Shown here: piece after piece, positions 23,066 through 26,456 of the stretch
Numbering within the stretch: position 1 is the stretch's first letter
Layout of the letters: each line of letters opens with the position of its first letter
DNA from: Eledone cirrhosa
Lineage: Eukaryota
Assembly: GCA_964016885.1 (NCBI GenBank)
Contig: OZ024743.1
Coordinates: forward strand, 180,606,001 to 180,670,000
Length of the DNA stretch: 64,000 nucleotides
Direction of reading: 5' to 3'
The notes under the pieces: model-generated
What the model was told of the DNA's origin: nothing
Database searches by the model: none
The model's input: only the letters and a program-made list of their open reading frames with translations
Program-made: the position numbers and the translations under genes

Positions 23066-23795
23066 ATGAAGAGAGAAGAAACATTTAGATATAATTAGTA
23101 ATAAAATGTATCATACCTAAACTGCTCCTAGATTCCTCGACTACGTAGTTTCGTGGCATAAACTAAAACAATACATCATAATGATATAGAGTCCTTGCGA
23201 GGTCTGCCGACTTATCAAGAGGATACCTCATTTTACTAGTCTCAAGAACGCGTCTACACGACGTGAGAAAGAATCCCAAAAGGCGGAGGGGGAGATAGTC
23301 ACGCGATATAACGGTCGAGAAACAGAGCTAAGCCTCTTATAACCTCGAAGAAAATACCACGGAGGCGGAGGGGGTAATTATATCGAAGCCGTAGAAGAGG
23401 TGGTGAAGGAGGCGAGAAGTATGAGTAATGGAAGCTTTCCAGCAGTCCCCACACTTCAATGATTGCTCGACCAGAGGGAGTTATTAACAATATATTTAGA
23501 AACACACAGATACATGCGGACACACACATATACATGAATGCATCCGCACCCAACCGTGAGTTAAGGGTGCCAACTTCACCGATGTTGCTCAATGAATGAC
23601 TGGGACAGACCAATACGGTTGAACTAGACTGAACCAGTATCTGATACTGGTTCATTCTAGTTCAACCGGATTGGTCTGTCCCAGTCATTCATTGAGCAAC
23701 ATCGGTGAAGTTAGCACCCTTAACTCACGGTTGGGTGCGGATGCATTCCTGTATATGTGTGTGTCCGCATGTATCTGTGTGTTTCTAAATATATT
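23066..23795 (-). mobile_element. Non-coding unit (family D) with a fold-back palindrome of about 310 bp (23487-23795) and a variant HHR
   Basis: Arms about 23487-23628 and 23656-23795; centre tgaaccagtatc-t-gatactggttca; (TA)n flanks. Confidence 0.75.
23133..23223 (-). ncRNA. Type I HHR, U3-A8 core variant with extended stem II
   Basis: tcctc-TTGATAA-gtcggca...tgccac-GAAAC-tacgta-GTC-gagga. Confidence 0.72.
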
Positions 23796-25068
23796 ATATA
23801 TATATATATATATAAGATATATATATATATATACATAATATATATGTATATATATATATATAATATATATGTATATATATATATATATATATATATATAA
23901 TATATATGTATATATATATATATATATATAATATATATGTATATATATATATATATATATAAGATATATATATATACATAATATATATGTATATATATAT
24001 ATAATATATATGTATATATATATATATAATATATATGTATATATATATATATATAATATATATGTATATATATATATATATATATATATATGTATATATA
24101 TATATATATATATGTATATATATATATATATGTATATATATATATATATATATATATATATATATATATATATATATATATATATGTGTATATATATATA
24201 TATATATATAATATATATGTATATATATATATATATATATATATATATAATATATAATATATATGTATATATATATATATATATATATATATATATATAA
24301 TATATACGTATATATATTTATATATATATATATAATATATATGTATATATATTAATATATATATAATATATATGTATATATATATATATATATATATAAT
24401 ATATATGTATATATATATAATATATATGTATATATATATATATATATATATATAATATATATGTATATATATATATGTACATATATATATATATATATAT
24501 ATGTACATATATATATATATATATATATATATATAATATATATGTACATATATATATAATATATATGTACATATATATATAATATATATGTACATATATA
24601 TATAATATATATATACATATATATATAATATATATATACATATATATATAATATATATGTACATATATATATAATATACATGTACATATATATATATATA
24701 TATTTATAATATATATGTACATATATATATAATATATATATAATATATATGTACATATATATATAATATATATATAATATATATGTACATATATATATAA
24801 TATATATGTATATATATATATATATATATATAATATATATGTACATATATATATAATATATATGTACATATATATATATATATATATACATATATATATA
24901 TATATATATACATATATATATATATATATATACATATATATATATATATATATATAATATATATGTACATATATATATATATATATATATAATATATATG
25001 TACATATATATATATATATATATATATATATATATATATATATATATATATATATATATATATATATA
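23796..25068. repeat. (TA)n microsatellite
   Basis: Direct reading. Confidence 0.95.
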
Positions 25069-25517
25069 TGGGAGGAGGTTATAGTTCACTTGAAGCATTG
25101 TGTAATGAGGTATAAACGTTTGAATATGTGTAATAAAGCCAAAACAATGCAAAACATAGAAAACAGAATGTAATTGTAAAAGATATTGTTGACAATTCGT
25201 CCTTTACCTTAATTTGATATAAATGTCCTTAATTTTCGAGATAATATCTATTCTTCGGAGGGAAATAAAGGTCTCAAACGAGCATTCTAAATATCTTGCC
25301 GTGATTTCCTGTCAGCATGGCTTGGCAAGATATTTAGAAGGCTGGTTTGAGACCTTTATTTCCCTCCGAAGAAGAGATATTATCTCGAAAATTAAGAACA
25401 TTTAAATAAATTTAAGGTAAAGGATGAATTGTCAACAATATCTTTTACAATGACATTCTGTTGTCTATGTCCATACCTGCATTGTTTTGGCTTTATTACA
25501 CATATTCAAACGTTTAT
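25069..25517. repeat. Diverged fold-back unit (family E) with a degenerate HHR-like motif in each arm (25226-25264 minus, 25361-25398 plus)
   Basis: Arms about 25110-25300 and 25324-25517; cct-CCGAAGA-a-gagat-att-atctc-GAAAATTA. Confidence 0.6.
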
Positions 25518-26384
25518 ATATATATATAATATATATGTACATATATATATATATATATATATATATATATATAATATATATGTACATATATATATATATA
25601 TAATATATATGTACATATATATATATATATATATATAATATATATGTACATATATATATATATATATAATATATATGTACATATATATATATATATATAT
25701 ATAATATATATATACATATATATATATATATATATATATATATATAATATATATGTACATATATATATATATATATATATAATATATATGTACATATATA
25801 TATATATATATATATATATATAATATATATGTACATATATATATATATATATAATATATATGTACATATATATATATATATAATATATATGTACATATAT
25901 ATATATATATATATATAAAATATATATGTACATATATATATATATATATATAATATATATGTACATATATATATATATATATATATATAATATATATGTA
26001 CATATATATATATATATATATATATAATTATATAATATATATGTACATATATATATATATATATATAATATATATGTACATATATATATATATATATATA
26101 TAATATATATGTACATATATATATATATATATATATATATATATATATATATAATATATATGTACATATATATATATATATATATAATATATATGTACAT
26201 ATATATATATATATATATATATAATATATATGTACATATATATATATATATATATATAATATATATGTACATATATATATATATATATATATATATATAT
26301 ATATATATAATATATATGTACATATATTATATATATATATATATATATATATATATAAAATATATATGTACATATATATATATG
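25518..26384. repeat. (TA)n with higher-order ATAATATATATGTAC motif
   Basis: Direct reading. Confidence 0.9.
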
Positions 26385-26416
26385 TGAGAAAAACCACAGA
26401 CCCTCCATCTCAACTC

Positions 26417-26456
26417 TCCTTTTGAAAAGCAGAAGAACTGCGAAACCGGTAAAGGA
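26417..26456 (+). ncRNA. Minimal type I HHR, U3-A8 variant, in a 200-bp pseudo-LTR fragment (26385-26589) related to the Neptune element
   Basis: tcctt-TTGAAAA-gcag-aagaa-ctgc-GAAAC-cg-GTA-aagga then AATAAA; upstream resembles 55741-55760. Confidence 0.75.

Follow-up and report, generated by a model that had tools for sequence, protein, structure and literature searches.

Type I hammerhead motifs at repeat 3' ends in Eledone cirrhosa, with a probably inherited and already published U3-A8 core

The locus and its hammerhead motifs

The window, by which we mean the whole stretch of 64,000 nucleotides analysed here, is microsatellite-rich animal DNA, about 30% masked and full of LINE and Penelope-like element (PLE) pieces. 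Motif scans of the window found hammerhead cores with the C3-G8 pair in ten copies (230, 651, 6430, 6913, 7396, 10862, 11472, 36884, 39165 and 63576) and cores with U3-A8 in four, at 23218 (minus), 26422 (plus), 52066 (minus) and 55767 (plus). Three of the latter heptamers lie exactly where an earlier note on this DNA had placed them, namely TTGATAA at 23218-23212 on the minus strand (site 1), TTGAAAA at 26422-26428 on the plus strand (site 2) and TTGAAAA at 55767-55773 on the plus strand (site 3); the fourth copy, at 52066, was absent from that list. The features are the following.

23069 to 23489, minus strand: short non-coding element bearing site 1, from the sequence, its 5' boundary being a guess
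23134 to 23223, minus strand: site 1, type I hammerhead motif with a U3-A8 core, from sequence and descriptor
23223-23219 with 23138-23134, minus strand: stem I of site 1, 5 bp (9 with a bulge)
23218-23212, minus strand: UUGAUAA box of site 1, from the sequence
23211-23153, minus strand: stem II of site 1, 6 bp, one C bulged out, the loop branched and 45 nt long
23152-23150, minus strand: GAA box of site 1, from the sequence
23149-23140, minus strand: helix III of site 1, a 10-nt palindrome
23139, minus strand: C17 of site 1, from the sequence
26385 to 26590, plus strand: 3' end, truncated at its 5' side, of a repeat that by local alignment is a diverged relative of Neptune's terminal repeat, set in (TA)n
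26417 to 26456, plus strand: site 2, type I hammerhead motif with U3-A8 and an otherwise canonical core, from sequence and descriptor
26417-26421 with 26452-26456, plus strand: stem I of site 2, 5 bp
26422-26428, plus strand: UUGAAAA box of site 2, from the sequence
26429-26441, plus strand: stem II of site 2, 4 bp
26442-26444, plus strand: GAA box of site 2, from the sequence
26445-26450, plus strand: helix III of site 2, the palindrome ACCGGU
26451, plus strand: A17 of site 2, from the sequence
51905 to 55961, plus strand: whole putative Neptune element, reading frame and terminal repeats
52033 to 52069, minus strand: mirror copy of site 3 with no differences, within the inverted terminal repeat of that Neptune insertion
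52691 to 54895, plus strand: uninterrupted Neptune-type PLE reading frame, 734 codons between stops, codon 20 being the first Met
55096 to 55961, plus strand: Neptune 3' pseudo-LTR and tail, of which 55096-55928 is mirrored at 51905-52700
55764 to 55800, plus strand: site 3, a hammerhead-like motif that combines U3-A8 with A13C and has a stem I of 3 bp, a stem II of 5 bp and ACCGGU
55788, 55789 and 55797, plus strand: G12, C13 and A17 of site 3, from the sequence

Positions 3 and 8 form a Watson-Crick pair in all four U3-A8 copies, and sites 1, 2 and 3 all have U4, G5, A6, A9, G12, A14, A15.1, U16.1 and H17. A13 is present at sites 1 and 2 and absent from site 3 and its mirror copy, where the second core box is GCAA, not GAAA (A13C at 55789 and 52044), and where stem I consists of just three A-U pairs, two peculiarities that the earlier note did not mention. 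Because position 13 is C at 55789, and is so family-wide as described below, we file site 3 as hammerhead-derived and not as a canonical type I member. The earlier statement that stems I to III pair fully at the first two sites holds with reservations, as stem II of site 1 is bulged and helix III of site 2 pairs only in a dimer.

The Neptune reading frame encodes, in one frame, a reverse transcriptase (RT; RVT_1, E 3.6e-7), a CX4CxxC linker at residue 603 and, at the C-terminus, a GIY-YIG domain (E 1.8e-6), and it is from this domain order and linker that the element at 51905-55961 takes its tentative name of Neptune PLE. No relatives of its protein were found in viral or prokaryotic contigs. 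The two copies of the repeat are 94.7% identical over 835 columns, microsatellites included, and the terminal repeats around 52066 and 55767 agree at 337 of 337 unmasked bases; the motif at 52066 is not independent, since it lies in the inverted terminal repeat of site 3's own insertion. Site 3 lies in a PLE pseudo-LTR, where site 2 is placed by homology.

Sites 1 and 2 are each present as a single, truncated copy. The element bearing site 1 stops about 70 nt beyond the predicted cut site, abutting (TA)n; a tblastn comparison with the eight PLE protein pieces of the window gave no match at E<=1 and no coding remnant, and we infer that the element would be either a Penelope-like terminal repeat or a retrozyme-like unit.

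A single descriptor run over the whole window gave 12 matches, seven with C3-G8, four with U3-A8 and one with A3-G8, none of the 12 having a single-mutant U3-G8 or C3-A8 pair; this one pattern was composed post hoc, with the sites already seen. In 300 dinucleotide shuffles of the window's 43,741 unmasked bases, the same descriptor found 37 matches of all kinds, of which five were U3-A8 (0.017 per shuffled window, against four in the real one), and no U3-A8 match with GAAA occurred in any shuffle. The U3-A8 motifs of the window exceed chance. At 23218, 26422 and 55767 the Rfam hammerhead models gave no match at E<=10, and the sole hammerhead found by Rfam in the whole window, among the 150 of 586 matches listed, was a C3-G8 motif at 633-704, below the gathering score; what the Rfam scans otherwise yielded was miRNA noise caused by microsatellites. 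The folding z-scores of the three sites (0.04, -1.21 and -1.37) are unremarkable. Given the missing Rfam matches and the weak z-scores, the evidence for the motifs rests on the core-plus-stems pattern. The A3-G8 match at 38537 was set aside as a junction remnant of a family with an intact C3-G8 copy at 39165, and relaxed U3-G8 matches at 149, 732 and 5308 were dropped for additional core or stem faults.

Other elements in the window

Three tandem units of 483 bp, more than 99% alike, occupy 6000-7528, every one of them bearing a C3-G8 hammerhead whose helix III is a 10-nt palindrome and whose stem II is branched, a retrozyme-like arrangement; their relatives are a truncated inverted copy at 5815-6012 and one 87% alike at 11472 (11339-11668). 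The family at 38425-39569 and 56940-57341 has its C3-G8 hammerhead at 39165, and the 5' ends of its copies at about 38540 and 56950 break within the hammerhead, in the core or in stem II. At the two ends of the window, 1-903 and 63119-64000 are related non-coding units in inverted copies, with C3-G8 hammerheads at 651/230 and 63576 whose motif is 75% alike.

Two further PLEs, at 16638-19126 on the minus strand (direct repeats 12070-13008 and 19238-20178) and at 57718-61634 (774-bp inverted repeats), are frameshifted and related, their RTs being 50-63% alike, and have C-terminal GIY-YIG-like ends; no hammerhead in their repeats passed the descriptors. Near-perfect long palindromes set in (TA)n, at 23490-23797, 25086-25507, 45693-46297 and 27502-27597, are probably inverted 5'-truncated PLE insertions, and the descriptors used found no hammerhead in them. 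A young LINE is present in three copies, 97-99% alike (2679-5468, 40795-43314 and 8699-9394), and an additional LINE lies at 47740-50227.

Two lineages of U3-A8 motifs

The local alignment of site 2 with the Neptune terminal repeat scores 82, where shuffles score 42.9 +/- 6.6 with none of 300 as high, and 51 of the first 69 nt of the site 2 repeat (26385..26590) are identical to the Neptune repeat. Sites 2 and 3 have U3-A8, A7, ACCGGU and A17 in common, and they differ by compensatory swaps at stem I pair 3 (C-G versus U-A) and at stem II pair 4 (G-C versus U-A), site 3 having in addition C13 and having lost the outer pairs of stem I. Judged from these alignments, 26422 and 55767 are one lineage.

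Site 1 has no sequence relation to site 2, 171 of 300 shuffles reaching the score of that alignment, and its alignments with the Neptune repeat (21 of 300) and with the tandem unit of 483 bp (6430; 22 of 300) are not significant. On these scores we count two lineages, site 1 on the one hand and sites 2 and 3 on the other, and the two independent families of the earlier note are borne out in this form. The U3-A8 pair would have originated twice, once in a common ancestor of sites 2 and 3 and once in the lineage of site 1.

The Neptune core across related contigs

The Neptune repeat was chosen for a family test on account of runs with the Neptune reading frame, 18 of 22 listed runs having part of it. 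With 55553-55961 as the query, contigs of at least 80% likeness were aligned from four of these runs, giving 2,682, 26, 9 and 5 contigs for organisms A, B, D and H, the largest run being X2; these counts are of contigs, whose depth differs from copy number, and relatives below 80% are missed, including possible C3-G8 ones. Within the 76 nt from 55748 to 55823, no substitution reached the 4% level in the contigs of the four organisms, and 26 positions vary outside this segment within the 409 nt. The substitution table is apparently complete, given that the tallies of changes per run agree with its rows. At the same 4% level, none of the four organisms has C at position 3, G at position 8 or another letter at position 13, and in X7 (record 29) and X11 (record 1) one contig each covers the entire motif and has every one of its differences outside it. 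With no alternative letter at positions 3, 8 and 13, U3-A8 is therefore family-wide in Neptune, and so is C13.

The earlier note had proposed counting U3-A8 in family consensus sequences, and had named a C3-G8 consensus with inactive copies as the outcome that would speak against it. The count is available for the Neptune repeat only, and there the family-wide U3-A8 removes that objection. Its view that U3-A8 is not the decay of a single copy likewise stands for the Neptune lineage, in which the contigs are uniform and the diverged site 2 shares the pair. It is likely that U3-A8 is inherited in the lineages of sites 1 and 2, besides being family-wide in Neptune.

The common indel is the omission of a T at 55777, in about 15% of the X2 depth, which keeps stem II. 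The loose-end consensus of seven X2 contigs at 55778 has A at position 13, with a median length of nine letters so that few reach it, and together with site 2 it hints that C13 may be the derived state. The family is young, 1,981 of the 2,682 X2 contigs being at least 95% alike, and for this reason its uniformity reads as fixation and not as selection. The invariance of the motif itself is borderline (P 0.08 over the 37 nt of the motif, 0.03 when flanks are included and 0.10 by the longest gap); within that borderline, the lack of variation leans to constraint, which a C13 variant that works would match better than one that is dead.

In organisms D and H, contigs of the terminal repeat depart at only 3 of 204 and 7 of 250 letters, and such closeness would suit either close relatives or recent transfer. 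Runs under three organism labels contained 68-75% of the sampled words of the Neptune reading frame (52760-54890), and about 30% was reached in five more.

Folding and predicted cleavage

Helix III is a perfect palindrome both in site 1 (ACTACGTAGT, self-duplex -12.9 kcal/mol) and in the ACCGGT of site 2 (-8.3 kcal/mol). The ACCGGT of site 2 is unable to close as a monomer and a dimer is therefore required; more generally, the palindromic helix III implies a double-hammerhead fold of two copies. Constrained to the hammerhead, single copies of sites 1, 2 and 3 fold 1.1, 1.7 and 7.2 kcal/mol above the minimum free energy (MFE), respectively. By energy evaluation, the double-hammerhead fold lies above the MFE by 1.4 kcal/mol for site 2, by 5.9 for site 1 (with stem II partly left out of the model) and by 16.2 for site 3, whose U3-G5 is tied up in a competing hairpin, and three C3-G8 motifs of the window used for comparison gave 0.4, 3.1 and 6.6 kcal/mol, a range that takes in sites 1 and 2. 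All these energies take no account of tertiary contacts or of protein. Dimers of PLE hammerheads were reportedly treated by Lunse et al. in 2017, which probably bears on activity.

As monomers, minimal PLE hammerheads show no activity, and their dimers cleave weakly in vitro (PMC4209133). For sites 1 and 2 we put the chances of a detectable dimer cleavage as roughly balanced, and for site 3 as low. Two transcribed copies would pair through helix III to form two active sites, and the element's own protein would probably aid this assembly. Sites 1 and 2 would cut weakly and only as dimers, and the A13C change and 3-bp stem I of Neptune would likely impair cutting. C13 may have reached fixation through a master copy, if cleavage is not strictly needed for insertion.

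Interpretation

We consider it probable that these motifs are type I hammerheads at repeat 3' ends which have inherited the published U3-A8 core, with sites 1 and 2 as weak dimer cutters and with the cutting of the Neptune motif likely impaired. The comparisons among repeats and contigs support the inheritance of U3-A8, and maintained catalysis would be plausible for 23218 and 26422 and doubtful for the Neptune family. The maintained catalysis of the earlier note was thus overstated, given that A13C and a weak stem I are likewise fixed in the sole family tested, and that a full pairwise mutant scan, as described in PMC9901934, rescued the 3-8 pair by G3-C8 alone; because of this sole rescue, sites 1 and 2 too may be inactive.

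That last result would also suit a reading in which all three motifs are dead relics, with U3-A8 fixed by drift in master copies since PLEs can do without the cut, and with the sequence, should it be maintained, serving pairing or protein binding. In vitro, the hammerhead mutants of an Anolis PLE insert undiminished, and no RNA ends were seen at its hammerhead cut site (PMC11167929), while Naiads are described without canonical hammerheads (PMC8557442). Against this stand the exact double compensatory transitions in two unrelated lineages, the otherwise intact core of sites 1 and 2, the stem pairs that swapped in a compensatory way between site 2 and site 3, and the in vitro activity of U3-A8 reported in PMC3088659, citing earlier work, and we hold such general death of the motifs to be unlikely.

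We give still less credence to the opposite extreme, in which all three motifs are working ribozymes and the U3-A8 plus C13 of Neptune is a tolerated variant that folds with the element's protein. The absence of substitutions in the 76 nt around the motif, against the 26 variable positions elsewhere, argues for it, as do the frequent indel that preserves stem II and the intact reading frame of the family, but the invariance is not significant, site 3 has only its three A-U pairs in stem I, and the competing hairpin takes U3-G5. Position 13 is counted among the core invariants in PMC3088659, and among the milder core positions, at a cost of 10-100 fold when changed, in PMC4075628, citing earlier work. 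Protein assistance has been shown for another PLE, the Anolis hammerhead cutting only with the element's own protein (PMC11167929). That a young Neptune family, spread over several related animals, should still be cutting with a fixed U3/A8/C13 core and its own protein as chaperone is a slim prospect.

It is very improbable that sites 1 and 2 are individually decayed C3-G8 copies that underwent both transitions by chance, despite each being a lone truncated copy, since site 2 shares U3-A8 with the Neptune family where the pair is fixed, neither change is in a CpG context, by which CpG decay as the origin of U3 or A8 was rejected, and the 12 descriptor matches hold no single-mutant pair.

Sites 2 and 3 make a matched natural pair within one lineage, both with U3-A8, the former with A13 and a 5-bp stem I, the latter with C13 and a 3-bp stem I and fixed in a family with an intact reading frame, and the pair bears on whether an expanding family can dispense with cleavage or tolerates A13C. 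If the U3/A8/C13 core does cut, the natural hammerhead core would be widened and some "ribozyme-less" PLE families would hide variants; if the Neptune motif is dead instead, it would be a natural test indicating that PLE retrotransposition in vivo needs no cut.

Comparison with known systems

The U3-A8 core was published for PLE hammerheads with about 1,300 copies in S. mansoni (Cervera and De la Pena 2014, PMC4209133), where rows of Fig. S3 carry both UUGAUAAA and UUGAAAAA, the same heptamers as the window sites, and a natural covariation from C3-G8 to U3-A8 was reported by Perreault et al. (2011, PMC3088659). The swap, which the earlier note had presented as rare, is already in print, for PLE hammerheads in PMC4209133 and for natural ones at large in PMC3088659, and the sites here add further examples to a published variant. 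What the window shows is mostly known, leaving the fixed A13C as its one unexplained feature. We found no report of A13C in hammerheads, mostly in open-access texts without figure panels, which does not establish its absence from print.

The window sites resemble the U3-A8 families among the minimal type I hammerheads of metazoan PLEs (S. mansoni families 3 and 4) in type I topology, in the terminal-repeat location of sites 2 and 3, and in their palindromic, dimer-requiring helix III, G10.1-C11.1 and the UUGAUAA and UUGAAAA boxes, but they have no extra nucleotide after A9, their palindromes are of 6 and 10 nt, and in site 1 stem II is bulged and ends in a branched loop of 45 nt (PMC4209133). 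Site 3 differs by its C13 from the 56-row text of Fig. S3 in the same paper, which has GAAA throughout (one AGAAA), and from the natural variants listed in the section text of PMC3088659, where A6C, A6a, U13a and U15.1-A16.1 are given and A13C is absent.

A pattern with the layout of sites 2 and 3 had no matches in viral contigs and six in metagenome contigs, none related to the window; five of the six, without a convincing stem I, were taken as chance. The sixth, on the metagenome contig L003, has at 65-99 what looks like a canonical C3-G8 motif in the ACCGGU-A17 layout of site 2, with a 4-bp stem I and unrelated flanks.

As a short non-coding type I unit, site 1 is like the animal non-LTR retrozymes (PMC7229834; bioRxiv 10.64898/2026.07.22.740005), but it is a lone copy without their tandem array (PMC7229834). 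In layout it matches the tandem unit of 483 bp at 6430 in the window, with a 10-nt palindrome and a branched stem II.

Hammerheads are said to be universal in PLEs outside Naiad and Chlamys, and what they do in PLEs that carry an endonuclease is called unclear (PMC8557442). The window element is like the Neptune clade of these EN+ PLEs in its RT, its CX2-5CxxC linker (shared with Nematis) and its C-terminal GIY-YIG, and also in the inverted 5' copy, the tail at one end, the (TA)n targets and the pseudo-LTR hammerhead, and it differs in that its hammerhead core is off the canonical descriptor at positions 3, 8 and 13 (PMC8557442). Because of these three departures, standard searches would call this Neptune family hammerhead-less.
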